64,000 nucleotides of DNA from Candidatus Heimdallarchaeum endolithica (GTDB lineage: Archaea > Asgardarchaeota > Heimdallarchaeia > Heimdallarchaeales > Heimdallarchaeaceae). The translations under genes and the position numbers were made by a program. The stretch covers positions 1,088,001-1,152,000 of the forward strand of contig CP084167.1 in the NCBI GenBank assembly GCA_021513715.1, read 5' to 3'. The notes below the pieces were generated by a model. The model saw only the letters and a program-made list of their open reading frames with translations, was not told the origin of the DNA and did not search any database. Shown one piece after another: positions 13,895-59,245 of the stretch. Position 1 is the first letter of the stretch, and every line of letters starts with the position of its first letter.

Positions 13895-14523
13895 TAAATC
13901 ACATCCAATATTTTTTTGAGGTTTTTATCAAATTTAGATAAATATCTAGAAACTTTTTTTAATTCTTCTTTCAGTTCTTTGTTTTTCTTATTCAGTTCTT
14001 TGTTTTTCTCACTCAGTTCTTCGTTTATCTTATTCAGCTCTTCGTTTTTCTTATTCAGTTTCTTTATCTTATTCAGCTCTTCATTTTTCTCACTCAGTTC
14101 TTCGTTTATCTTATTCAGCTCTTCGTTTTTCTCAGTCAGTTCTTCGCTTATCTTATTCAGTTCTTTGTTTTTCTCACTCAGTTCTTCGTTTATCTTATTC
14201 AGCTCTTCGTTTTTCTCACTCAGTTCTTTGATCATTTTTACTTTTTTATACTTTAACTCATTTACCTGTTGAGATAACTCAGAACGCGCAGACTCTGACC
14301 CATTTTCTTCTTGAGTTAACTCAGAACGCGCAGACTCTGACCCATTTTCTTCTTGAGTTAACTCAGAACGCGCAGACTCTAACTCACTTTCTTCTTGAGT
14401 TAACTCAGAATTCGCAGACTCTAACTCACTTTCTTCTTGAGTTAACTCAGAATTCGCAGACTCTAACTCACTTTCTTCTCGAGATAATTCAGAATTATTG
14501 TTGGAAATTTTATTCACCACCAA
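13894..14523 (-). CDS. Coiled-coil protein built from heptad tandem repeats
   Basis: (ELTQEESELESANS)x~5 followed by (EELSEKN/EELNKIN)n; stop overlaps the start of the next gene. Confidence 0.75.
   Translation of the reverse strand: MVVNKISNNNSELSREESELESANSELTQEESELESANSELTQEESELESARSELTQEENGSESARSELTQEENGSESARSELSQQVNELKYKKVKMIKELSEKNEELNKINEELSEKNKELNKISEELTEKNEELNKINEELSEKNEELNKIKKLNKKNEELNKINEELSEKNKELNKKNKELKEELKKVSRYLSKFDKNLKKILDVI
13958..14229. repeat. Intragenic 21/42-bp tandem repeat encoding EELSEKN/EELNKIN heptads
   Basis: Recurrent ttattcagctcttcgtttttctcactcagttcttcgtttatc units; boundaries approximate. Confidence 0.9.
14268..14493. repeat. Intragenic 42-bp tandem repeat (about 5 copies)
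   Basis: Recurrent ttcttcttgagttaactcagaa(cg/tt)cgcagactct(aactcact/gacccatt) units; boundaries approximate. Confidence 0.9.
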
Positions 14524-35641: not shown

Positions 35642-35862
35642 CATGAGTTGAAATTTTACGTAATTTCTTCAGGACTCTCCCCAACCAACCAACAAACTTA
35701 GCGAAAGTTGTGAAGACTGGCTTAAGAGAACATGAAAGACACAGTCTCAATTAAGTTCTCAAAGGGGTTCATCTCCTTATCCCGGGAACTCATAACTCCC
35801 AAAGGGAAAACCGGGTGTCGTGGGAATGAAACCTACGTCTTTAAGCATATAGCTCAAGACAC
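35642..35862 (-). ncRNA. Putative structured RNA (omega-RNA-like) within copy A
   Basis: Same TATA box and stem architecture as copy B. Confidence 0.55.
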
Positions 35863-36016
35863 TAGATAAATGAGAATTAAATATATAAAGATAGCTGAAA
35901 AGTTGTTACACTCCCCAATATTTTGTATTTTTTATTTAAGCAAATGTGTTTCAGGTTGTTATTGGTCTAATAACTCCACAAACTAAAAATTTAGTTTTTT
36001 ACGTAAAAAAGTATCT
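35646..36016 (-). mobile_element. 371-bp non-coding mini-element, copy A, flanked by CATG/CATG
   Basis: Near-identical (about 7 substitutions by eye) inverted copy at 41111-41481; removal restores the Smr ORF; subterminal TTACGTAA palindromes at both ends. Confidence 0.9.
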
Positions 36017-37392
36017 CATGGTTACAAGAGGGGAAGAGTTCTAAAAGACTATTTCAAGTCGGATTCTTTTCTTAAGGAAACAAGAAAATTGGGATGTGAA
36101 CTAATATACGAAAATGATGATATTTTCTTAAATCCAGGTAGAACTAGTTATTTAATTCGATTCATAAATGGGAATGAAGAAAAGAAATCGATTCTATCAA
36201 AAGAATGGATAGGTTTTATTGCCCATAAAGAATCCGAACAAAAGACAGAAAAAGATTTTCAACAAGGCTTCTATTATATTAAAGAAGAGACACAATTTTG
36301 TGATGAAGAAGAATCAATATTGATGAGTGATAAAGAAGATGATGAACTAGAAGAAGAATACACTCTTTTCACAGATGAAAATGAACAAAAGAGAGAAGAC
36401 CAAAATAATTATGAATTCCTCAGCATCACAGTGCCTGAACGAGAGTACACGATTGATAATATTTCTCCTAAAGATAATATTGCTGATTTAATTCACGGAT
36501 TCAGATTGCGAATTCCAGAATACTCTAGTTATGATTTATTACTAGGGTTAACTTATCAGGGTTCTGGAGATCTAACACTTCGAATTTGTAAATATAATTT
36601 CTATAATCAAATGATTCTACCTAAAGATAATATTGATTTTATTAAATCTGATAAAAAATTGCATTATATACATGATTTTGCAGAGGGGTTAGAAAAAATA
36701 ATTGACAATTTTGCAACTCTTAATAAGATTAAACAAAATAAAGAAAGAAAAGTCTTAAATTCAAGTTTAAGAACAGGAACAAGTTGTTATCTTGTGTACT
36801 CCCTCTGCTATTATAAAGATAATAGACATATTGGAATAGCTTTTTATCCAATCGACAATAAAACAATTTTTCGAATCTTTAGGGTAGATCTTCCTTATTC
36901 AGCTCAATATGAAGTAAATATAAGAACAGATCATTATGGAGGGCACAAATGTATAGACATCTCTATACAAGGATTAAACTACAAAAAATTTATCATAAGT
37001 TTTAAAGAACTGTTTATGAAAATTCTTGAATATTTGGATGAAACAGATACATTATTTATACTTTGAGTTTGGAAAACATTCTTTAAATTGGAAAAAAGTA
37101 TTACCTCTCACGTGTCTGATTTGTTATATCAAACTTGCGATCGCAATATATACCTTTTTCGTGGTCCCTTTGCTCCAGTAAATTGATAGAATACAGGTTT
37201 GTAACTAAGACAAAGAAGAAGATAATACAAAATCATCACACCATAGACTTTCTTGTAAGATAAGCCGTAACAAAACAGCAAAGTGCATTATTATAAGGGC
37301 ATCTAAACATTTCGATAGAAATTAGTATATAGTATAAAACAAAAAGTTAAATAATAAAGCAAACATAGACTACGTCTAAAGGCTTGAAACAA

Positions 37393-40963: not shown

Positions 40964-41110
40964 GGAATTATATGTTTTTCATTATTTTGCAAGTTGATAA
41001 CCCTTCTTGTAAGGAGGTTCTAACTAGAAGAAGACCTTAAGGCAAGATAGAGTAAATTTATTGTTGATTTCATATTTTTCTTCTAATTTCTTGAAGAATT
41101 AATATCCATA

Positions 41111-41481
41111 AGATACTTTTTTACGTAAAAAACTAAATTTTTAGTTTGTGGAGTTATTAGACCAATAACAACCTGAAACACATTTGCTTAAATAAAAAAT
41201 ACAAAATATTGGGGAGTGTAACAACTTTTCAGCTATCTTTATATATTTAATTCTCATTTGTCTAGTGTCTTGAGCTATATGCTTAAAGACGTAGGTTTCA
41301 TTCCTACGACACCCGGTTTTCCCTTTGGGAGTTATGAGTTCCCGGGATAAGGAGATGAACCCCTTGGAGAACTTAGTTAAGACTGTGTCTTTCATGTTCT
41401 CTTAAGTCAGTCTTCACAACTTTCGCTAAGTTTGTTGGTTGGTTGGGTAGAGTCCTGAAGAAATTACGTAAAATTTCAACT
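41111..41481 (+). mobile_element. 371-bp non-coding mini-element, copy B, flanked by CATA/CATG
   Basis: Inverted near-identical copy of 35646-36016. Confidence 0.9.
41238..41245 (+). promoter_or_regulatory. TATA box driving the element RNA
   Basis: TTTATATA about 20 nt before the first stem (G41265); identical in both copies. Confidence 0.55.
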
Positions 41482-41485
41482 CATG
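41265..41485 (+). ncRNA. Putative omega-RNA-like structured RNA (about 220-nt scaffold plus flank-derived guide)
   Basis: Stems GTGTC/GACAC, GTAGG/CCTAC, CCCGG/CCGGG, AACTTAG/CTAAGTT and AAGACTG/CAGTCTT; loop TATGAGTT is complementary to the terminal AACTCATG. Confidence 0.6.
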
Positions 41486-41755
41486 TTTCTGTTGGACATA
41501 AAAATGACAATTGATAGTGTTGAGTATCAAGGAAAGACAAGACCAAAACAACAACAATATGAACTTAAGCATCCAAAAGAATACAAGTTATATTGGGCAA
41601 CTTTTCCTGTAACAGACAGAAAACAAATTGAAGGCAAAGAGAAAATACAAATCTATGTTGATATAAAATTCTTCAGTAAGAAATTCAAGAGATATAAGAA
41701 ATATACAGATTTACCAGAAGAGGATTTAAAGAGGTTCATATATTCTATTCAATAA
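41483..41755 (+). CDS. Small hypothetical protein (true start may be the later ATG, MTIDSV)
   Basis: 90-aa ORF whose first ATG is the CATG at the element end. Confidence 0.5.
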   Translation: MFLLDIKMTIDSVEYQGKTRPKQQQYELKHPKEYKLYWATFPVTDRKQIEGKEKIQIYVDIKFFSKKFKRYKKYTDLPEEDLKRFIYSIQ

Positions 41756-42086
41756 ATTATATTTTAAAAAAGAAGGATTGCAATAGTAATATAAAACTCT
41801 TCGAGTTCTTGTAGCAAACTTTCCGTTTATTGAAAATACTTTCATAAAGAAATATTAAAAATGGGATTTTTTCGAATTAAATATAAACCCCTATTAAATA
41901 ACTATTTTTTTGGATGATTTAGGTACTGAACTGAACTTCAACAATATTACACTCAAACAAGTAATTATACTTACAGTAATTAAACAAGAAGAGAGGATTA
42001 GAGCTAAAAAAAAGTAAAGAATAATATTCAAAAATAGCTTTAAGCTTTAAATAGAGTAAGCTGTTTTATATCCATTTCTCCTTTTT

Positions 42087-42590
42087 CTATTCATGTTCAT
42101 GTTTGCAAAACAATCTATATCTTGTACCTCGGTTTTTCATTTTGTGATGTTCAACATATTCGAAACCAAGTTTCTTGAAAAACCCGTTCACTAATTCTTC
42201 TTTATATGTTTCCAATAATAAACCAATGCTTCCAATATCTTCTGAGATTTTTTTACATCTCTTCTTTGCATCTTTAATTAATATTGTTCCCCAACCTTTA
42301 TTTTGGAAAATTTTATTTACTCCAATTTGCCCAAGCAAACACACAGGTTGATCATATTCTCTTCCTTCATAGTTAAAACGAACAGATTTCATTGAAAGCG
42401 TATAGAAACCTATGAGGTCATTTGTATTCACAAGTATAAACACATAAATTTGAGCATTACCTAATTCAACTTCTTCATAGCTTCTCTGATTAAAATACTC
42501 ATTAACGTTTTCATCACCACAATCAAAGTCTAATAGAGTATGAGATATATTTAGTTTCTCAATTTTATACTCTACTTCATGACTAGTCAT
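42087..42590 (-). CDS. GNAT acetyltransferase (AtaT/TacT-like toxin)
   Basis: FDCGDENVNEYF, IGFYTLS, LLGQIGVNKIFQNKGWGTILI, FFKKLGF. Confidence 0.85.
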   Translation of the reverse strand: MTSHEVEYKIEKLNISHTLLDFDCGDENVNEYFNQRSYEEVELGNAQIYVFILVNTNDLIGFYTLSMKSVRFNYEGREYDQPVCLLGQIGVNKIFQNKGWGTILIKDAKKRCKKISEDIGSIGLLLETYKEELVNGFFKKLGFEYVEHHKMKNRGTRYRLFCKHEHE

Positions 42591-42597
42591 TGATGTA

Positions 42598-43209
42598 TCA
42601 CTTTGAGATTATTTCTAGAAATCTTTTTGCAGCTTCACCTTTCAAGACGATGTCACGTTCATGTTTCATATCACTTGAAACAAACCCTGAATTATCATCT
42701 ACTTTTTCTACAGAATCTAAGTTTACTTTTTTAGTATCAAGATCTGCTTTAATAACAGAACGAACTGTATATTTAGGATATTTTTCGTAAATTTCTTTTA
42801 ACATTGATTTTAAAGATTGAGACTTACTTTTTTTCTTAATATCATCAATTACTTGTTTTTCTTTCTTAGGGATTGTTTTCAAATATTTTTTAGCTTCAAC
42901 TAAACCTTTTTTTGACAACTCATAATGATAATCTCCACTTTTATACAATATATTAATATGATTACTTTTAATCAGTTCGTTAACACAAACAGCAAAACGA
43001 GTACTATAAGGCCCAAAGTGATAAGGATAGAATTGAGCTGCCTTAAATACTTCAGGAGCTAACTGCTTGGTAATCAAAAAGAATTCTTTAGTTATTCTAA
43101 CTTTTCCTTTGATTGAACTATTGTTATCTGCAGCTAACATTAAATAGATCCATTTTTTTATCATTTTATTTTCTTCTTCCGACATATTTTTTGTCGCTTT
43201 TTGATTCAT
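42598..43209 (-). CDS. Putative antitoxin: winged-helix/SocA-like domain plus a DUF1778-like C-terminal helix
   Basis: FYPYHFGPYS, YELSKKG, IYEKYP; tail IVLKGEAAKRFLEII. Confidence 0.55.
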   Translation of the reverse strand: MNQKATKNMSEEENKMIKKWIYLMLAADNNSSIKGKVRITKEFFLITKQLAPEVFKAAQFYPYHFGPYSTRFAVCVNELIKSNHINILYKSGDYHYELSKKGLVEAKKYLKTIPKKEKQVIDDIKKKSKSQSLKSMLKEIYEKYPKYTVRSVIKADLDTKKVNLDSVEKVDDNSGFVSSDMKHERDIVLKGEAAKRFLEIISK

Positions 43210-43237
43210 TTATATCACCTTTTCTTGGATAAATATC

Positions 43238-44473
43238 TCAGAAGTAACTATCTAAAGGCGGATTAATAAACCTTTCAAGCTCAGGATATCTTTTAGATAG
43301 TTTGCGTCTATGTCGTTTTACTAATATTTTTTGTCTAAAATACTCTGAGATATCATTATCCCTAATATTTTTTCTAATTGCCAACATTTCCTGGTTAAAA
43401 CCATTATATTCATGCACTTGTAGAAGTGAGTTTTTATCATGTGTTGAGAGATAAATCCTAAAGGTATCTATATCTTTTGTCTTTTTACAAATGGGACAAG
43501 TACAAGAAAGTTCATGACCAATCCATTTAGTCCGCTCATTTATAGAAATGTAACCTAAAGCTAATTGCTCAAACAAAAACCGTTGACTACGCTTTATCTC
43601 TCTGACCTTTTGTTCTTCTATTTCCCTAGCAGTTGGTTCTAAAGATATATTCTCTGGTGTTGGCAATAAACCATCCTTAATATTTTTCTTGCTGCTGCTA
43701 TACCCATGTTTTTTTTTCAAGGAAATAGTATCAACACTTGTCAAAGGTGCCAAATGCAGTTGGGACACATTCTTATATTTTTTGGATAAGTCAAACAGAT
43801 GAATCCAAATCGGATTATCTGATTGTGTAATCAGATTTGTTGATTTGTGCAAAGTAACTGGAAAATGTGGTCCGTGTGCTCTTAATCCAATGGATGGAAC
43901 TTGCTTATCTATTAACCACGAAATTTTCTTTTCCACATCCAATAAAGGCTGAGCAAGTGAAACAGTAGGCATAAATAGTTCCGATGTTCCAACTTCTTGT
44001 GAAACCTTAGCCTCATAGAGAGATGCGTCCATAGAATCAATCCAAAAGTTATTATATGAACAAGTAGGATCAGGTATTGTTATAATAGAAAATTTGTTCA
44101 TATCAGACTGCAACCTAACAATTTGACATAATTCATATTTGCTAATTTCATTTCCAGCCTTCAAACGAAATTGAACAAAATTCATCCGATCAGATTTAGT
44201 CAAGTTATCTAGCTTGTTACATAATTTTTCTATTTCATCGGAGTTTTCAAATATTTTTTGCGCAGTTAATCTATCAGGTATATGATCACTAATTAATTCA
44301 TTCAGTTTTGGGTTAGGCTCACGACTCCCAACAAGATTATACCCTGTAGTAAGTCGTCTAGTTTCAATATATGTCATTATATAATTTGGTGTTTCTATTT
44401 CTACATTGCCAAGCTTCAACTTTGATTGCCTTAAGGATGCAATTGTATTTTTAACTTCAAAATTAAATGACAT
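43238..44473 (-). CDS. tRNA-guanine-transglycosylase-fold protein lacking the DSGG catalytic motif
   Basis: N-terminal F.V.....R...L.....IETP, IHLF...VDT, and the Zn site CTCPIC...H. Confidence 0.65.
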   Translation of the reverse strand: MSFNFEVKNTIASLRQSKLKLGNVEIETPNYIMTYIETRRLTTGYNLVGSREPNPKLNELISDHIPDRLTAQKIFENSDEIEKLCNKLDNLTKSDRMNFVQFRLKAGNEISKYELCQIVRLQSDMNKFSIITIPDPTCSYNNFWIDSMDASLYEAKVSQEVGTSELFMPTVSLAQPLLDVEKKISWLIDKQVPSIGLRAHGPHFPVTLHKSTNLITQSDNPIWIHLFDLSKKYKNVSQLHLAPLTSVDTISLKKKHGYSSSKKNIKDGLLPTPENISLEPTAREIEEQKVREIKRSQRFLFEQLALGYISINERTKWIGHELSCTCPICKKTKDIDTFRIYLSTHDKNSLLQVHEYNGFNQEMLAIRKNIRDNDISEYFRQKILVKRHRRKLSKRYPELERFINPPLDSYF

Positions 44474-44697
44474 ATATTTCCCTTTTACTCACAATTTTTT
44501 TATGTTTATTTACTCCTCCTTATAGTTAAATAGAAGGATTTAATTATTCTTTTTTCTTTAATTATCATGTTTTAAAACCAATTAAGAGTTTTTAATATAA
44601 AATAGTTTCTCATTTTAAAGAGCAGATGCTCGATTTTTATTGTATTACGATAATAGTTGCCATTAAATATTTAATTATTAACCATCAGTGCTATTTA

Positions 44698-45666
44698 ATG
44701 AATGATAATAATGAAAAAATTGCATTACAAGAAATAGATATAAAAGATATCAAAAGGCAATTAATATGACAATTAAAATATGGATCACAGTATGAGATCC
44801 CACCAGAAAAGAGAGATTTAATATCAGCTTTAGGACTGTTAGATACTGCTGAAGAGGATTTAAGAGCTTCAAAAATTCTATACCACAAGAAACTATATGC
44901 ACAGTCTATTTTCTTCCTCCAACAATCTGTTGAGAAATTAGGAAAATCACTACTTCTACTTACTGGACTGTGTCAAACTGAACGGCTTATAAAAGTTGGA
45001 CATACTTTTACTAAATTCTTCTTCGAAAAACTAAAAGATCTCTATGAATCTTTAGCTGATTATTCTAATGATAACCAAAGAGAAGGATTTTTAAGCATTA
45101 TAGAAGCAATTGACAAATATTTGAGTGATTATGAGCAAAAAAGGAAATCAGAAGAAACTCTGTATCTTGAACACACTACATTAAAGGAAATATTAATTAA
45201 ATACAACAAGCTGTTTTCATTATTTTGGAAAGGAATAAAATCCATAAGAAAAGAAAATTTTGATAAAATTGTGAAAGAAGAGTTCATTAGCATAACAGAC
45301 TATGTCATTCAAACAATCGAACAAGAATATAATATCAAATTGCAAACTGATGAGCGAAGAATGTTGAGAGAAGAATTTATCACACAAATTCAGAAAGAAG
45401 ATTGGTTAGTAAAAATAGAAAGTTATCTTTATCTTATACTACTGTTTGCATATATAGTTATTTTAAGCATGAATTTGGAAAAACATGTTAGTGCTTCGCG
45501 TTATCCTAATTATCATTCAGATTATAAATATACAAAGAATCATAGTATTATGCGTCTTTACCCAATAATGTTAAAAACTATGAGAGAGATGATAAAAACG
45601 TATGATATACTTCTAGAACTATGTATTGTAGAAAACAATGAAAATAATAAATGTGAAAAAGCATAA
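44698..45666 (+). pseudogene. HEPN-domain protein with one in-frame TGA at 44767-44769
   Basis: AEEDLRASKILY...YAQSIFFLQQSVEKLGKS...VGH and a late SRYP; same frame as ATG 44698 and the called ORF at 45121. Confidence 0.75.
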
Positions 45667-46092
45667 AATTACTCTGTCTTGTAGTTTAAAGAGTTCCAAG
45701 AATAATAATCATTTTCTTGAGCATTTGCTCGAAAATAATTAATTAGTATCTCTCAAGAAGTTAATCACTAGGATTTCTCCATCAATCGACTTCTTTCAAT
45801 TATGTATTACCGAACTTTTTAGGAGATTTTTGTCGTCTTAATAATAGGAAATTATGTACTATTTACAAAAATAAGCAAATGAAGATAGTTTGTTTAAAGA
45901 AATGAGTTCATATAGATAACTATATTTGAGAGATAAGATGTAATGTCAAGAATATGGAAGATTATACTTATTGCATAATCAATGACAGAGGAGCTATTAT
46001 TACTTTAATCACAAACTTTTTTTAAACATTACAACTAGCTATTATCTACGTGGGATAAAAAAATTAGAAAGGAATACTAGAATTGTTTGATT

Positions 46093-48497
46093 TTAAATAA
46101 TTTTTAATTTGTTTTTTTTAGAATCCAGAGTAGATAATGTAAAGATTTCTAGTGCTAGAAGAAACATTAACACTCCTGTTGTCAAAGAAATTATCCTCAA
46201 AATTTGTTGTGGAATAGCAAAATAGAAAGAAAGCGTTTGACACCATAAAAGAGATAGGAATGATAGCGGAAAAAGGATGAAAATAAAGTTTGAGGGATTA
46301 TTGTTATTAGCAATCTTTTTCTTTTGCTTACTATAGAGTGTAAAGAAAGCAGATGTAAGTAAATAAGTTAAAATTGGAAGCAAGATCAAGTTTATTGACA
46401 CTTTTACGAAAGATATACTTAAAATGATAAGAGAAGAAAGAAGCAGGTTTGTAGCAATAGAATCATATCTAAAAGTTACTTCATTACTTGAAAACCCTAG
46501 TGAGTAAAAACCAGAACCTAATAAATAAAATAACGCAAAATAAATAACATTAATTAAAACATAGATAATTGTAGAGTAACTTGTTTTTATAATGTCACGG
46601 TAAACAATTTCTGTTTTAAAAAGTGGATAAAAGATAAAATTAATCATTATTGCAGATGAAATAGCAAAAATTCCAAACCATCTAAAAGCTTTCAAATGAA
46701 CACTTTTGTAATTATTATAAGTGCCTTTCCAAGATATCTCTGATAATATTTGATTTCTTTTCATTTTAAATTTAAGAATAAGACGTTCATTTTTATCTCC
46801 TTTATTTTCTATTCTCTTTTTTATTATTGTAGAAACTATTATTATTGATAAAAGGCAGAATAGAGAGAGATAAGTTAAACTTTCTGGAAACAAAATTGGG
46901 AAAATATCAATATTATCTGGTAAAAAATCTTCATCTGTATCTCTATTCAAAGGATCTGTGTTTTTTTTAAATTCTTCTAGGTTTGTTAACCCATCACCAT
47001 CAATATCTTCATTTTGGTCTCCGATATTATTATTATCTGAATCTTGAAGTAATGGATCTGTTTTTGTAGCAGATATTTCATAGCCATCTATAAGAAAATC
47101 TCCATCTGTATCCTTTTTTTCTGGGTCTGTCCCAATAATTTTTTCAGAGAAAGTAGAAATAGTATCTCCATCTTTATCTATTGTAAAACTGTTTCCAGAA
47201 TTGAAGAAATTACCACCATCTCCCTGCCAATAGATCCTGTAACTTGTTTTCAAGGAATTAGTAATTGTATAACAAAAAACGTTTCCACTTTTGGAACCAT
47301 ATATCATCTCAAAACTGCCATCATTATCCAAATCACCAACAGTGATAGAAGTTTCTATTTCTTCATTTTGATTATAAATAGAGATTAAATTTCCCTTTCT
47401 TCCTCCAACAATATACACATTTTTACCATTAAGTAGGACATCTAGTTCGTTATCCCCATCAACGTCTGCCAATGTTGGAGCAGTTCCCCCTAGTATTAGT
47501 TCTGTCTTGAGTGTCCAGAGGATTGTCCTAGTTCTTCCATTAAATGCATAGTAATAAGAATCAGAAGACCCTATAACTATATCCAGATAGCCATCATTGT
47601 TAAGATCTCCTAGAGCTGGAGATGCTCTTATTGATCCCCCAGTTTTAAATTTCCATTTTATTTTTCCTGTGTCACCATCAATCATATAGATGTTTCTATC
47701 ATTAGAACCTATATTATTTCCAGTGTGCTATCACCATCAACATCTCCAATTGCAGCAGGAGCAGTGACGAAGAAATTTGTTTCAAATTCCAAGATTTTGG
47801 AACCATTATAACCATTAAAAGCAAAGATTGATTGTCCACACCCAACTATAATATCGGAAATACCATCATGATTAATATCTCCTAAACTAGACGATGTAAA
47901 AAAACTCTTCATAAAAAACAGTTTATTTTCCCATAGAAGTGTACCATCCTTTCCATCTAATACATATAATAAACCATAAGTAGTTGTTACAATGATGTCA
48001 TTATCTTGATCATTATCGATATCAGTAATCGAAAGTCCCCCTTCAATAGATATAGATCCCCCTTCTTCATAATTGAATCTCCAAATCAGAGAACCATCTA
48101 CACTTGATAAAACGTAAATAGAACCATCTCGTGTCCCAATTATAACTTCAAACGTACCATTATTATCAATGTTAGCTATAAGAGGTCTCATTAAAATTTC
48201 AGAATTGTAGTAATATTTTCTTATATTAAAATCCCATAATACAGTACCTTTTTTACCCTCAATACAATAAAGAACTCCATCTATAGAACCCACTAAAACA
48301 TCAGTATAACCATTATTATTTACATCTAGTAGAGAGGATGTTGAATCTATTCCAGCGCCAGTATGATAAACCCAAAATGGGTTGTTTTCATCATTTTTTG
48401 AAGGTAAAGCAGGGATTAATATTAGTGATATAAAAAAGAAGTTAACCAGAATCAAAGTAGTTAATAGGATTTCCACAGAGTATTTTTGAAATCTCAT
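46093..48497 (-). pseudogene. FG-GAP/PQQ-like beta-propeller membrane protein with Ca-binding DxDxDG repeats, split by a 1-nt frameshift near 47712
   Basis: GDVDGD/GDLNNDG repeats continue across the two ORFs (LEII-[I]GSNDRNIYMIDG); DTDGD..DG.E repeats and C-terminal TMs. Confidence 0.8.
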
Positions 48498-48764
48498 CCA
48501 TATTTTGTAATTCTACAAATTATAAATATGTTATTGCTTAAAATAGTGCTTATTTAAATCTATTTTTCTTATCAACCCTCTTAGTTGTTGTTATTTTTTT
48601 CTCTCTCATCTCTTTTTGTAATCTTTCTTTCAAAAGAAACATATTTTGGGACTAATTAACAAATAATCCATCTATCAACCATTTTTGCTTAACACAAACA
48701 TAAATGAATAATGATATAATATTAATAAAAAAGTAAAAAATAGTTTTTATTTTATTTCATTTAA

Positions 48765-49508
48765 TTATAACTTAAGCATCTTTACAAACCATTTTGGCAT
48801 GATTAGTCCTAAATAACCTATTATTGATCCTATAACTAAAAGTGCCCATCCAATGTAGTATGCAGGAGAGTATCCCCTTGAAAATGCATCTACATAAGCT
48901 ACAAGAATAGAATCTAATGTAAATGAAACAAACAATAGAATCATAAATATTGCGTAGGTACCAATTAAGGCAAAACCTATTTTTGCTATTTTCTTTTTAT
49001 TCATTTTAGCTTCTCTTAAAGACACAATTGCTAGTATTAGGAATATTAATACTGAAAGTATTAAATGGTAAGTAACTATTAACACATGTGATCTCATGTT
49101 TCCCCATTCAAAATTTAATATAGGAACAATCAAACCTATTGTTATTCCACTTAATATAGCAAACAGTGCTACAAAATCTACTCCTTTTTGAATAAATATA
49201 GAGTCTATAAATGAAGCAATAAATACGTTTGCTATTGCCATTAAAACATATGCAAATAAGGTTGTAAAGTCAGTATATGAGAATTGAGTATAGGGGACTG
49301 AAGAGAAATAACCTAACCATCGGCCGATACAACTTGTTAAAGTTGCAAGGTTGTAAAAAAGATATGCTAAAGCCAGATATAATACAGGTTTTTTTCTTTT
49401 TGCAAAAAACCTTGCAAAAACTGTTACTACCATAAAACTTAGTGCTATAACAACCACTAGTTCAAAGATTATAGAGCTTATTGGGATTTTATTTTGCCAG
49501 ACAACCAT
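48765..49508 (-). CDS. Seven-transmembrane protein
   Basis: Seven hydrophobic helices; 16 bp downstream of the longin-like gene. Confidence 0.75.
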   Translation of the reverse strand: MVVWQNKIPISSIIFELVVVIALSFMVVTVFARFFAKRKKPVLYLALAYLFYNLATLTSCIGRWLGYFSSVPYTQFSYTDFTTLFAYVLMAIANVFIASFIDSIFIQKGVDFVALFAILSGITIGLIVPILNFEWGNMRSHVLIVTYHLILSVLIFLILAIVSLREAKMNKKKIAKIGFALIGTYAIFMILLFVSFTLDSILVAYVDAFSRGYSPAYYIGWALLVIGSIIGYLGLIMPKWFVKMLKL

Positions 49509-49524
49509 TTTTACTTTTCACCTT

Positions 49525-49995
49525 TTACCATAATGAATCCTTTATTCTTTTTGTTGCTTCTCTCTCGCTAATATAGTCTTCCCAGTTATTAACTATTTCC
49601 CTTATTTTTTTGGAAATTACTTCTTTTGTTTCACCACCAATTGCGCTAAAATCTTCAACTTCTTGATCAAAAGAAATTAGGGTCTGAATTTCATCTATTA
49701 GTTTATTCATTTCGTTTCTATCTATAGGTTCTTGGTTTTTTACTACAGCTATTGCAAATTTTTCTGTTACATTCATGAAAATTTCATTTTTTTCTGTATC
49801 AAAGAATGATGGAACACCTACATCAATTTCAGCCATGGCTACTTGAATTGCAGATATTATTCCAGAAAATAAAGTCACTGCATCCACATCATCTTCTTGT
49901 GATACAAAATCTACATAAAGTAATGGTAATCCTGTTCGGGAAATAATATAGACTGTTTCAATCACTTTTCTTCTTCCTTTATTTTTCTTTGCCAC
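49525..49995 (-). CDS. Longin-like domain protein
   Basis: VYIISRTGLPLLYVDF...LFSGIISAIQ pattern typical of Asgard longin/roadblock proteins. Confidence 0.7.
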   Translation of the reverse strand: MAKKNKGRRKVIETVYIISRTGLPLLYVDFVSQEDDVDAVTLFSGIISAIQVAMAEIDVGVPSFFDTEKNEIFMNVTEKFAIAVVKNQEPIDRNEMNKLIDEIQTLISFDQEVEDFSAIGGETKEVISKKIREIVNNWEDYISEREATKRIKDSLW

Positions 49996-50053
49996 TTTAA
50001 TAAAAATTCACACAAATAAAAAACTTTTCAATTTATCGTTATATTAATAAAGC

Positions 50054-50098
50054 GATTATTATTATTATTAGTAGTAGTAGTAATAGTAGTATTAGTAT
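50054..50098. repeat. (ATT)n(AGT)n microsatellite in intergenic DNA
   Basis: gattattattattattagtagtagtagtaatagtagtattagta. Confidence 0.6.
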
Positions 50099-50723
50099 CG
50101 TGTGTAGAACATTATTTTTTTGAAAGGTTTTTTGATTTTCTTTTTAGAGGTAGTACTTCCGCAATAAGTTGACCGATTTCTATAGGTTAAAATTATAGGA
50201 GTTCATACTATCATTGTCGTGTTCTCAATTCATACTTTTTGAGATAATTCGGAAGTACTATTAGAGGGGAGAAAAAAATAAAAACAACTTTAAATTTTTG
50301 AAACAGATGAACAATGAGAATTATCTAATCGAACAGTATAAGATGGAAGAAAAAGAGCACAAAAAAATAGCTGACTTACTTTCTGAATCTTTCTTATCAG
50401 ACCCTGCAGCTATTGATGAAGGAGCTTCTATTCTCTTTTCTGACAAAACGATAAAGTTAATTTTTGGTTCTCTAACTGTCAAGAAAAACTATTTTGTTAG
50501 AGCTGTTTACAAGAAAACAAATGAAATTGTAGGATTTTTGGGATTAATTCCTAGAGACTTCAGAATAAAGAAACAAACGTACAATTTCGCTATTCCTGCC
50601 TGGTTAGCTGTTCACCATCAACATAGAAGAAAGGGTTTAGCAAAAATGATGGGAGAAAAGATGTTAGAAATCGCACAAAAAGAATCTTTTGATGGAGGTT
50701 TTGCTTTATTTGAACCAGAGCAA

Positions 50724-50967
50724 CATGATTTACTTTTTGCGAAGTTTGTCGAACTTAGTCTTTCAAGAAAAAAACAAAGAAAGAGAATTGTCAGTTTCTT
50801 GAGAACTTAATCCTAACATACAATGAAAGAAGAAGGATTAAGGCAGACGTCATACACGAATCGTGGGAATCATAAAGAAGAAAAGAGTTGTAAGCTCTTT
50901 CTTCACTCCACGAGAGACAAAAAAGAAACAATTATCCCTAAAATAGAGAAATTATTTTTCTTTTTGT
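50724..50967 (-). ncRNA. Putative omega-RNA of the TnpB element
   Basis: 3' of tnpB up to the element end; stems UCGUGG/CCACGA, GAAGAAGAG/CUCUUUUUC, CUUAAUCCU/AGGAUUAAG and UCAAGAAA/UUUCUUGA; loop UAUGAUU is complementary to the terminal AAUCAUG. Confidence 0.65.
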
Positions 50968-52566
50968 CTACTGGGACTGCAACCAATGGCTGAGTCCTCG
51001 GCAAACAGTGTAGTGAGTAAGACTGAATTTTTGACCAGTAAAATAATCAGTAATAGTTGTAGTACGGGGACGAAAAAGATGACTAAGGAATTTACGAGCA
51101 ATATTTCTTGCCCCTGTCAAATCGGAGTGGAAGGTGTAATTGCAAATGGGACAGTGTACTAACCCTCTAACGGGACGAGAAACTTCTTTTCCACAACGGG
51201 AACAATGAGAAGATGTTCCTCTTTCGTCTAAAGTGAGAATGCGGTGAGATTCAAAACCTCTTAATATCAATGCTCGACGGAGAAGACCAAGAACTAAAGA
51301 AAAATTCCACTGGTGAAGTTTTCTACGAAAATAACGAGTACTTTTTTCTTTTCCTTTTTCTTTATCTTTTCTAACATTTTTGGGGTAACCTACGACGACG
51401 AAAAGGTCATACACTTTTGCATAACTCTCTATTGTCCGCACAACGTCGTTTATAAATTGGTGAATATAGGACCGTTTAACGTTTCTATATCTCCGACGGA
51501 GAAGACCGAGAAAACGATAAATTTGGTGTTTTTTACCCGACTGGTCATTTAAAGCCGCTTTCCTCTGAAGACGGGAAAGTTTGAGTTTATATCTATGATT
51601 GATTCTATTCCACTGTTTGGTATGCCAGAATTTTATTTCTTTAATAGTTAATTTCTTTTTGGGAGTTAGTAACACTCCTGCTGCAGGAATGTTTATCCCT
51701 AGATCTATTCCCAGCACAGCTGGAGGAAGAGAAGAAGAACTTTCTTTTTCAGGAGGATAGAAAGAAGGAGGAGGAAGAACTTTCAATTGGAAATACACCC
51801 ACCATTCACGTGTAGAACGTTTATATCTCAGTTCTAAACTTTTTATTTGTCCTTTCTTCAATTCTTTTTGATGGAAAGTGCTCATCTCTAAAGGTAACCA
51901 CAATCGTTGATGATACCTTGTCTTTCTTTTCCACGTGTCTAATGAGTCTCTTATTCCTACCCACCAACGAGAAATGGAGTTGTTTTTTTCTTTTGGTAAA
52001 TTAGTAAGAATAAATCTTTTTTTATTGATTAGTTGTCTTCGGGGTCTCTTTTTTGGAGGACGAGTGGCTTCAGGTCTATATCCTTGCTCGTACAGTTGTA
52101 CTGCTATATCTCTGCACTCTTGAAACTCATCGTGAGAACAATGGCGAAACATCTTTTTAAGGTCATGAGGAACAGTCTCTCTTCGCTCTTCTACTTTTTT
52201 TATCCTTGATGTTGTTAATGTTAGTTCATCTAACTTCCCTTTATGTACTCTTATTTCTCCGTTCTTTGTTTTCATACACAGTCTTCTTCTGTTGTGATGT
52301 ATAATTTTTACATACTTTTCTATTATCCTCGTGTCTCTCCCTGTTATTCTCCTTAATCTTTCCTTTTTTCTCCTCGTCAAAACTTCATTCTTTATTCTAA
52401 CTTTCAAAGTTTTGACTATCTTCTCCATCTTTTTTCCTCTTATTTTCCTTTTTCTTCTTCTTCTCTTCATTTATTTCTACTATTTTTTCTTATAAAAAGT
52501 CTCTTTTTTTTCTTTTTTTTAGTTTCTCATCCATACTCTCTATCCTAATGTTCGCAAAAAGTGAAA
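50728..52566 (-). mobile_element. 1839-bp TnpB-only element with terminal inverted repeats, flanked by CATG on both sides
   Basis: Ends atttACTTTTTGCGAA / TTCGCAAAAAGTgaaa; CATG at 50724-50727 and 52567-52570; excision restores the host ORF; no transposase gene. Confidence 0.9.
50968..52470 (-). CDS. tnpB: TnpB RNA-guided endonuclease with a rearranged RuvC-II
   Basis: RuvC-I LGIDLG; VVVGYP replaces the canonical V.EDL; alternative Glu in LDERGTSS; Zn finger CSRC..CPIC; RuvC-III HSDLTGARNI; TATA tttttataag about 20 nt upstream. Confidence 0.92.
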   Translation of the reverse strand: MKRRRRKRKIRGKKMEKIVKTLKVRIKNEVLTRRKKERLRRITGRDTRIIEKYVKIIHHNRRRLCMKTKNGEIRVHKGKLDELTLTTSRIKKVEERRETVPHDLKKMFRHCSHDEFQECRDIAVQLYEQGYRPEATRPPKKRPRRQLINKKRFILTNLPKEKNNSISRWWVGIRDSLDTWKRKTRYHQRLWLPLEMSTFHQKELKKGQIKSLELRYKRSTREWWVYFQLKVLPPPSFYPPEKESSSSLPPAVLGIDLGINIPAAGVLLTPKKKLTIKEIKFWHTKQWNRINHRYKLKLSRLQRKAALNDQSGKKHQIYRFLGLLRRRYRNVKRSYIHQFINDVVRTIESYAKVYDLFVVVGYPKNVRKDKEKGKEKSTRYFRRKLHQWNFSLVLGLLRRALILRGFESHRILTLDERGTSSHCSRCGKEVSRPVRGLVHCPICNYTFHSDLTGARNIARKFLSHLFRPRTTTITDYFTGQKFSLTHYTVCRGLSHWLQSQ

Positions 52567-53343
52567 CATGGAATTGATACAGCCTTATCAGTTGCTAAAG
52601 AAAAAAAACTTCAAGTTTTTCGACCATTTGAAACTAAAAAGTTTATCATTAGAGTTTTTGATTCTGAAAAGGTTGCCAGCGTTGTTAAACTTAAATTTTA
52701 CGAGAAATTATTTTTCAAATTAAAAGAAAAAAATAAGAAAATAAAGAATAGTGCTAATCTCAGACAATTTAGAAAAGAAGATATTCCAATTTTATTTGAT
52801 TTACTAGTAGATCTCACTAAAGATTATGAAGTATCAATAGAACCTAATTTTGAAGATTTTAAATGGGTATTAGAACAACCAGCAACTAATTGTATAATTT
52901 ATGAAAAAAGTGAAGAAATAAAGGGATTCATGCTTGCTTGGGAGTTCAAACTTGCAGATTTCGGAAATGCAATTCCTTTTGGTTGGATAGATATTATTCA
53001 CATAAAAAATCTATCTACATCAGAAGCTACAGATTTGAGTCTGTATCTATCTGAAACGAGTAATGCAAAAGGATGGTTGGGATTACAATCCCCATACATT
53101 CCTTATTATAAGTCTAAACCTTTACAAAAAGCTAACTTTGTTTTTTTCCCCAAAAAACTAAGTTTTGACATTATTTTACTTAGCAAAGTGAAAATACCTG
53201 GTAAGTTTAAAGCTGCTTACTTTGATTGGAGATGAACACTCATTTGAAAGAGAATAGAAGGAACTAATGAAAAAAATAGAGGTTAAAGATTTACATTTTT
53301 TCCAAAGGTTTAAAAATAATAAATTGTAAGGGATAATAGAAAA

Positions 53344-58507: not shown

Positions 58508-59245
58508 TTAGTTTTCTTGTTCTTGTTCCTTTTCTTGTTCTTGTTCCTTTTCTTGTTCTTGTTCCTTTTCTTGTTCTTGTTCCTTTTCTTTGTCTTTCAT
58601 CCATTCAGGAGTTTCATTTAATCTTGCTTTCCAATCAAATTCTTGAAATCCAGTCATTCTTTTTTCCATTTTAGAGGCTACTGCAGATTCTATTTGATGA
58701 AATCCGTCATAGAATTCATCTATTTTTTTTACTCTTTCTTTTTGTTTTATTCTTTCTTGTGCTCTTTTTTCAAAATCAAATAAATAAGCGATGTAGCTAA
58801 AAAGTCCCATCTTTTTATCTCTAAGGTGTCTTTTTATTAAATAAAGGATGGAGGCTAACATTAAAGCTCCAGTAACAAAAAATATCCCAATTAAGATTTG
58901 TGAAGACCATTGAGTTCCGAAAAAGGTTAGATATATACTAACAGGTAAATATGTTGCAGCCATAACAATAATAGGTATTGCAACAAAAATATACAAGAGT
59001 TCATTAATTGCACTAGCTATGGCATATCCTCTTCCTGTTAAAAACCGTATCATAACACCTGAAAAGAATGTTCCTGCGAGTATAGCTATAATAACAAATC
59101 CAATTATTTTAAAAAGAGGATTTCCTGAAACAAAACCTAATATTACTGATGCTGTTAAAACTACACCTAAAATAATATTTTGAACTATATTCTTACGGTC
59201 GATGAATTTTTTTCTTTTTGGCACATAATGACCCATTTTCCTCAA
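58508..59245 (-). CDS. Membrane protein (4 TM) with an (EKEQEQ)n tail
   Basis: Hydrophobic N-terminal half; repetitive acidic C-terminus. Confidence 0.75.
   Translation of the reverse strand: MRKMGHYVPKRKKFIDRKNIVQNIILGVVLTASVILGFVSGNPLFKIIGFVIIAILAGTFFSGVMIRFLTGRGYAIASAINELLYIFVAIPIIVMAATYLPVSIYLTFFGTQWSSQILIGIFFVTGALMLASILYLIKRHLRDKKMGLFSYIAYLFDFEKRAQERIKQKERVKKIDEFYDGFHQIESAVASKMEKRMTGFQEFDWKARLNETPEWMKDKEKEQEQEKEQEQEKEQEQEKEQEQEN
58512..58583. repeat. 18-bp tandem repeat x4 (EKEQEQ)
   Basis: (ttttcttgttcttgttcc)4. Confidence 0.9.

Follow-up and report, generated by a model that had tools for sequence, protein, structure and literature searches.

How do elements that enclose a tnpB gene, or only a guide RNA, move when none of them encloses a transposase gene? 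The question is raised by a 64,000-nucleotide stretch of the archaeon Candidatus Heimdallarchaeum endolithica (positions 1,088,001-1,152,000 of the single-contig 3.33-Mb genome, 31% G+C), from here on the window, which carries one tnpB element and two gene-less mini-elements (minis) with only a predicted omegaRNA, the guide RNA of TnpB (Table 1). The closed 3.08-Mb genome of the sister species Ca. Heimdallarchaeum aukensis PM71 was used for comparison. An earlier sequence-only reading of the window had linked the tnpB element to the minis, and they do belong to one system, defined by its ends. We propose, with a probability of roughly 0.6, that the elements are selfish and non-autonomous, and that a reaction of the serine-recombinase type, acting in trans at a 2-bp AT core, moves them.

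In the H. endolithica genome, three unrelated TnpB lineages account for approximately 18 full tnpB elements, and there are approximately 24 gene-less, guide-RNA-only minis. The full copies comprise 12 of the window tnpB subfamily, two of its 54%-identical relative, three of a 445-aa lineage and one of a 424-aa lineage; the minis comprise 18 full copies of the window type and six of the 445-aa lineage. Approximately 11 tnpB elements are found in the closed H. aukensis genome. In these genomes Wu et al. (PMC8813620) recorded 11 families of transposases or integrases, and their paper mentions neither TnpB nor inverted repeats.

Element ends and the AT core

The two ends of an element form an inverted repeat, which the sequence-only reading had overlooked. 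The repeats are imperfect (26 of 32 positions identical in an intact copy), and in tnpB elements and minis alike all ends are symmetric around AT. From the outside inwards, an end consists of AT, usually a G, five to six variable bases, a T-tract and a short motif that is often repeated at 10 bp. The window tnpB element has a single TTTTGCGAA unit at its left end, compared to two units 10 bp apart in intact sister copies, and the left-end motifs described earlier, ACTTTTTGCGAA and ACTTTTTTACGTAA, are present in the sequence. In two other genera both ends shift together, from the TTTTACGTAA to the TTTTCCCCAC motif, so the symmetry of the ends is maintained. One subclade (L142, L150, L153, L154, L157, L159 and L160) is repeatedly inserted at the same site of a HerA-like ATPase gene; its copies elsewhere retain approximately 8 bp resembling that flank, and its ends are barely inverted.

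The left junctions previously read from the window, CCATG (52571-52567, minus strand), CCATG (36021-36017, minus strand) and CCATA (41106-41110, plus strand), are all present, and the three window elements do finish in CATG on the right. That all right ends do so does not hold genome-wide: across 36 copies, G follows the right AT in 28, and C precedes the left AT in 35. The 445-aa lineage has G-AT at its right end and C-AT at its left, and the left start of the 424-aa lineage is G-AT. One H. aukensis mini lies at G-AT-G, the orthologous H. endolithica site being empty with a single AT, and a tnpB left end that reads CATG in H. aukensis corresponds to CATC in the orthologous host sequence. Because AT alone is common to all junctions and empty sites, the shared core is AT, neither CAT nor CATG; on the left, the base following AT belongs to the element, and on the right, the G following AT belongs to the host. 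Both a CATG duplication and a CAT core are ruled out by the tabulated flanks and the empty sites. Thus, of the earlier suggestion that exchange takes place within a short CAT core and not by CATG duplication, the short shared core is retained and its sequence corrected to AT. A 2-bp AT duplication and a 2-bp core yield identical junctions, and duplications of 3 and 4 bp are excluded.

Removing the tnpB element from its host gene, which from its sequence probably encodes a GNAT-type acetyltransferase, gives back a 375-codon frame, and an empty allele with one CATG occurs in an independent hydrothermal metagenome contig (joint 50721-52565); together these show that insertion was precise, and they cannot by themselves size the core. 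The CATA/CATG mismatch of copy B, previously offered as evidence on the core, is unreliable because no clean insertion is seen at copy B: in H. aukensis 2.1 kb separate the two flanks, and this segment is deleted here.

Left flanks and the predicted target-adjacent motif

The target-adjacent motif (TAM) had been predicted to be CCATR. The flanks of the 36 copies are lineage-specific and do not bear this out, the base before CAT being C in only 18 of 36 genome-wide. In the subfamily of the window copy this base is C in six of six copies and in the sister subfamily it is A or G in six of six; it is T in all nine copies of the 445-aa lineage and its minis, and mixed in the window-type minis (non-T in 17 of 18). 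Where the right end is TCAT, a base other than T precedes CAT in the left flank in 31 of 32 copies (p = 7e-6), and where the right end is TGAT, the left flank is TCAT in nine of nine (p = 1e-4). Left flanks that are specific to the lineage and unlike the right end of the same element are what self-avoidance would demand of a TAM, and we therefore read the TAM as a lineage-specific left tetramer, predicted to be CCAT for the window copy's subfamily and RCAT or TCAT for others, with no trailing R. The R of CCATR would be the first guide base, and CCATR itself is a partial description of the target, not a TAM. Self-avoidance of this kind is described for CboIStron of the IS607 family (TGGG vs TCGG; 10.1101/2023.11.20.567912). 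The difference between left and right tetramers would then reflect TAM-based retention, and target choice by the mover could contribute to the flank bias too. A tendency towards the palindrome TCATGA is seen in the 445-aa lineage, and a few left flanks other than CAT occur in H. aukensis.

Predicted guide RNA and terminal pseudoknot

Both RNA pairings proposed earlier are found, AUGAUU with AAUCAU in the tnpB element (50873-50868 with 50730-50725) and AUGAGUU with AACUCAU in the mini (Table 1). The proposed topology, in which a 3' bulge of a stem and hairpin pairs with the RNA terminus, is recovered when the 3' end is kept unpaired, whereas unconstrained folds nest the pairing as a closing stem. 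With its last seven bases unpaired, the mini RNA folds into an outer CCCGG/CCGGG stem and an inner hairpin with AUGAGU free in the bulge, and because of this position the pairing with terminal ACUCAU crosses the outer stem. The difference between the two RNAs had been described as a compensated G-C insertion. Since the seventh pair is lost in most minis, whose strand reads AUGAGUG, a U-A to G-C substitution within a helix of 6 bp is the better description.

At the same position AUGAUU/AAUCAU is found in the window subfamily, AUGAGU/ACUCAU in minis and other genera, and AUAAGU/ACUUAU in one relative, amounting to two independent compensatory changes in the terminal helix. In the 424-aa lineage a loop GUGGUU pairs with AACCAU, the 54%-identical relative has the helix with one mismatch, and the 445-aa lineage has a possible 5-bp match only. 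A lone 6-bp match is weak evidence (frequency of 0.05-0.22 in shuffled sequences); it is the conserved position and the covariation across lineages that support the terminal pseudoknot, a feature already known from TnpB and Fanzor2 RNAs. A search of Rfam returned nothing relevant. The mini RNA aligns with the 3' RNA of the same TnpB clade in other genera, and because of this homology the window minis are not simple deletions of the window tnpB element; in other genera, minis are plain internal deletions.

The TnpB protein and its relatives

Comparison of sequences and a structure model indicate a complete RuvC triad with a rearranged RuvC-II. TnpB has D256 in RuvC-I, a Glu to Gly replacement in RuvC-II (VVGYP) with an alternative E416, a C4 zinc finger and D450 in RuvC-III. 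D256, G361, E416 and D450 are invariant in 26 homologues, and the model (predicted local distance difference test score of 84) matches Cas12f, TnpB and Fanzor2. The same rearranged site, with the alternative Glu, is active in Fanzors and TvTnpB (PMC10530073).

Named homologues are nearly all Heimdall- and Thorarchaeota proteins. Those of Thorarchaeota, approximately 33% identical, adjoin a protein of 1500-1900 aa in approximately 50 loci and carry a GTTCAC-type motif. The large neighbour (L283:4107-9740 and L284:5119-9687, also L019 and L020) is divergently oriented to tnpB and has no match in Pfam or the ESM Atlas; its N-terminus aligns weakly and non-significantly to Cas1 motifs and is followed by a PD-(D/E)xK-like motif. 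In Thorarchaeota a TATA-preceded hairpin upstream of tnpB is complementary to a GTTCACTC motif at the tnpB 3' end, which suggests a split guide or inverted ends.

AT-centred rearrangements and remnants

Sites centred on AT also appear to have recombined where no element is present. An IS6 copy (genome 141792-142573) has 550 bp inverted precisely within it, between a CATG and a TATC site that have only AT in common, and no element ends are present. The 200 bp at window positions 50527-50726 are inverted in H. aukensis (L364:12284-12483), which has no element there, and this inversion ends exactly at the CATG occupied by the window tnpB element. One-ended remnants are mostly right ends (approximately 20, vs seven left-end-only); among the eight youngest, five have the host flank fused to an AT or CATG inside the element (p approximately 0.01). 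Recombination of a left end with a nearby AT, followed by precise excision where needed, would explain the inversions, the remnants and the deletion at copy B. It is because of the precise AT-core inversions and the one-ended remnants that serine-recombinase chemistry is favoured. The base next to the core also varies (G, A or C), and fixed termini are typical of DDE elements.

Proposed mechanism and the search for the mover

A recombinase would bind the T-tract repeats 8-20 bp inside the ends and excise a precise circle, whose joint is predicted to be symmetric around AT. The circle would recombine with an AT, preferably within CATG, leaving the AT seen at both junctions. TnpB with its omegaRNA, predicted to end at the right-end AU and read into the host flank, would cut the empty site beside the lineage TAM (CCAT here), and the cut would drive repair from the filled copy, so that insertions at the right TAM are kept, as IS605 and IS607 work and the flank statistics suggest. 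Minis would supply their own guide RNA and borrow TnpB and the recombinase.

The probability given to this reading is divided about evenly between a pair of host serine recombinases and a serine transposase that is unseen or lost. With PF00239, each closed genome has just two genes, both chromosomal and with the catalytic domain first. The pair is present in 28 of 30 Heimdallarchaeaceae and in none of 52 other Heimdallarchaeia searched. Tyrosine recombinase matches, mostly strong and XerA-sized, occur in all 16 genomes of the order's other families, compared to scattered matches in nine of 24 Heimdallarchaeaceae. The Heimdallarchaeaceae genomes searched have two conserved chromosomal serine recombinases and no conserved XerA, and these recombinases may stand in for XerA in chromosome dimer resolution. 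That the tnpB and mini family never encodes a transposase and uses the two host enzymes is a tentative proposal. Extra serine recombinase copies occur in relatives, some in small mobile-looking cassettes, with no tnpB and no AT-core ends; L416, L417 and L424 have such a cassette, with ORFs of approximately 310 aa and 110 aa, in variable contexts.

Several observations weigh against the serine-recombinase reading, or against the part played in it by the host enzymes. In approximately 160 related loci no recombinase gene lies inside or beside any element, and no circle joint was seen among the matches listed in assembled contigs. Inverted microhomology of 7 bp accompanies the H. aukensis inversion, which may stem from DNA repair or from faulty assembly, and microhomology repair after a left-end break could explain some of the other rearrangements and remnants too. 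The case for the host enzymes is circumstantial, their family-level co-occurrence with the elements representing a single evolutionary event. The recombinases lie in conserved chromosomal contexts, no convincing native chromosomal site resembles the end motif, and the recombinases remain approximately 75% identical between genera whose inner end motifs differ.

No transposase or recombinase with matching ends, such as the sequence-only reading had envisaged, was found among the classes tested. When end profiles were paired across the genome, the pairs enclosed only tnpB or nothing, nor did the approximately 160 related loci reveal a transposase that could partner the Heimdallarchaeaceae elements. 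In closed H. aukensis there is no match to Y1, IS607 TnpA, tyrosine recombinase, IS110 or ISL2-type enzymes, and PF02371 (the IS110/IS1111 DEDD recombinase) is found in none of five genomes, both closed ones included. The comparison with IS607 made earlier is apt in that the products look like those of a recombinase; IS607 as the mover is rejected, since neither closed genome has an IS607 TnpA and the IS607 elements of relatives have other ends. These elements of related genera (L063-L077) have a TnpB of approximately 640 aa, a left junction ACYGT and a right end GYGT, which suggests a GT core instead of GG, and L038 is a tnpA-only derivative. The only tyrosine recombinase in the H. endolithica genome adjoins a match to the HeimV1 integrase primer (PMC8813620). 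In the repeats beside this integrase (genome 30280-30370), 13 bp (TTTTGTACGCCAA) match the right end of the 445-aa lineage, a lead that was set aside given that H. aukensis has no tyrosine recombinase match. Matches of viral contigs to the end motif were taken as chance.

Alternative movers

A DDE transposase that cuts and pastes and duplicates a 2-bp AT target, its autonomous partner being lost or on an unsampled virus or plasmid, is the strongest alternative, although we consider it rather unlikely. IS630/Tc1 elements duplicate a TA target. Covariation of the inverted ends between genera (TTTTACGTAA to TTTTCCCCAC) and the deletion adjoining copy B would fit such an enzyme, and six DDE-associated TnpB branches with inverted ends, together with solo TnpB moved in trans, have been reported (PMC10691335). 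However, PF13358 (IS630) has no match in the H. endolithica genome and PF13359 (ISL2-type) none in either closed genome, and the inverted ends of the resident IS481-, IS5-, IS6- and ISH3-like elements are unrelated, their duplications being longer. Resident IS4/IS5-type elements are likewise rejected as partners, as their ends do not match. The terminal bases are not conserved, one subclade is nearly without an inverted repeat, and the element-free AT inversions are not a direct product of DDE chemistry.

It is improbable that the mover is an enzyme of an undescribed class or a Cas1-type transposase of Asgard archaea, which has been reported as the partner of this TnpB clade. The adjoining 1500-1900-aa protein of the Thorarchaeota homologues and their GTTCAC-type motif, which is that of the Cas1H-Asgard groups, point in this direction. 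A profile of the large protein finds nothing in the H. endolithica genome (best E 0.11), however, and the Cas1 matches of this genome are ordinary CRISPR Cas1. Known Cas1 integrases leave long duplications, which also speaks against this mover. Stand-alone short ORFs resembling the Cas1 N-terminal domain only are present in two related genomes (L350:1441-1884 and L351:1486-1809).

Peel-and-paste transposition of the IS200/IS605 type, by a Y1 HUH TnpA acting in trans on a left TAM and a right transposon-encoded motif, is very unlikely: the strict lineage-specific left tetramers, right-end tetramers one base apart from them (CCAT vs TCAT, TCAT vs TGAT), the palindrome TTACGTAA in some ends and the one Y1 gene of H. 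endolithica resemble that family, but Y1 has no match in closed H. aukensis or in 19 genomes of the largest genus, left ends fold like shuffled sequences (z of 0.3, -0.5, 0.6 and 1.0, with no calibrated positive control) and are pyrimidine tracts in two genera, the lone IS605 has different ends, and the right-flank G bias and the inversions would be unexplained. This sole IS605 element (L003, genome 923874-925950; Y1 tnpA and tnpB, higher G+C) in turn carries a mini, immediately upstream of its tnpA.

Other features of the window

Beside the features in Table 1, a remnant of approximately 110 bp (50150-50265), multicopy in H. aukensis, is probably an IS5-like end, and intragenic tandem repeats occur at 13950-14500 (21/42-bp units) and 58512-58601 (18-bp units). 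At 47678-48704 synteny with H. aukensis (L364/L365) is broken; there, a tnpB element and a mini bound approximately 9 kb of extra genes.

Table 1. Coordinates of the AT-core elements, their parts and associated genes (window positions unless stated)
Feature	Position	Strand	Comment
tnpB-only element	50724..52570	-	1847 bp including CATG at both junctions; AT cores 52569-52568 and 50726-50725; 11 further full genomic copies
Left flank CCAT (predicted TAM) and left inverted end of tnpB element	52548..52571	-	
tnpB	50968..52470	-	500 aa, likely start M15; PF07282
Predicted omegaRNA scaffold of tnpB element	50725..50915	-	Overlaps right inverted end; putative boundaries; guide predicted from host base 50724
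Host gene split by tnpB element	50298..53235	+	Frame restored on element removal; contiguous in metagenome contig
Mini-element copy A	35642..36020	-	371/379 identical to copy B
Mini-element copy B	41107..41485	+	379 bp, gene-less, omegaRNA-only; AT cores 41108-41109 and 41483-41484
Archaeal TATA-like box TTTATATA	41238..41245	+	Upstream of mini RNA region; putative promoter
Pseudoknot 5' strand AUGAGUU	41334..41340	+	3' bulge of CCCGG/CCGGG stem; pairs with 41478-41484
Two serine recombinases	L001:1213-1935, L002:1201-1950; genome ~317 kb, ~405 kb		240-250 aa, chromosomal, catalytic domain first

Relation to known systems and significance

The AT-core elements share with IS607 elements (IS1535, CboIStron) a 2-bp core at both junctions, a precise empty site, short phased repeats near the ends, a TAM that includes the core and a right-end motif that differs from the TAM, avoiding self-cutting (PMC6188088; 10.1101/2023.11.20.567912). 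They differ in having AT instead of GG as the core and terminal inverted repeats, which are absent in IS607, and in that no helix-turn-helix-serine TnpA is present in either closed genome and the local IS607 ends are unrelated. As in IS1341-type and PATE-like IS200/IS605 elements, tnpB-only and guide-only members share ends and are acted on in trans (10.1101/2023.03.14.532601), and the RNA has a predicted terminal pseudoknot; the conserved left-flank tetramer with a similar tetramer at the right end is a further IS200/IS605-like trait. Unlike in those elements, there are no subterminal hairpins, the ends are symmetric and H. aukensis has no Y1. A nuclease within inverted ends, and a guide read through the right end, are also found in DDE-linked TnpB (such as the IS630-linked DDE-6) and in non-autonomous Fanzor2* elements with terminal inverted repeats (PMC10691335; 10.1101/2023.08.09.552727), whereas here no DDE partner was found, the terminal bases are variable and a single genome has one end grammar common to three unrelated TnpB lineages.

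The window TnpB is homologous to Thorarchaeota proteins with the described motif and large neighbour of the Cas1H-Asgard TnpB groups (PMC10691335), but the large neighbour and a downstream GTTCACTCA motif were not found here and the right end differs. This TnpB clade appears to have moved into AT-core elements, its Cas1H-Asgard group being assigned from the motif and not from the published tree.

Elements of the CTXphi type exploit the host Xer tyrosine recombinases at one dif site. The concept of a recombinase-less element using a chromosomal recombinase is the same, although here many AT sites are used and the host enzymes are candidates for the role.

The pieces of this system are known singly, namely TnpB flanked by terminal inverted repeats, guide-only minis and the pseudoknot; it is their combination, and the missing mover, that set this system apart. 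The symmetric ends with an AT core are a new end type for TnpB elements, and one Asgard archaeon holds three unrelated TnpB lineages and guide-only minis on this one end type. The analysis yields predicted TAMs (CCAT, RCAT and TCAT) for compact nucleases, and two closed genomes leave few candidates for the mover, which makes the question of its identity a sharp one. If a DDE enzyme is the mover, the family would be a prokaryotic parallel to Fanzor elements with terminal inverted repeats, with gene-less copies as well. If it is the host serine recombinases, RNA-guided elements would have a new spreading route, a conserved but uncharacterised pair of genes would gain a function, and the enzymes would offer a small recombinase that is undemanding about its target. 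The elements would then form a homing system powered by host recombinases, which has captured TnpB at least three times and has caused AT-centred inversions and deletions in the chromosome.

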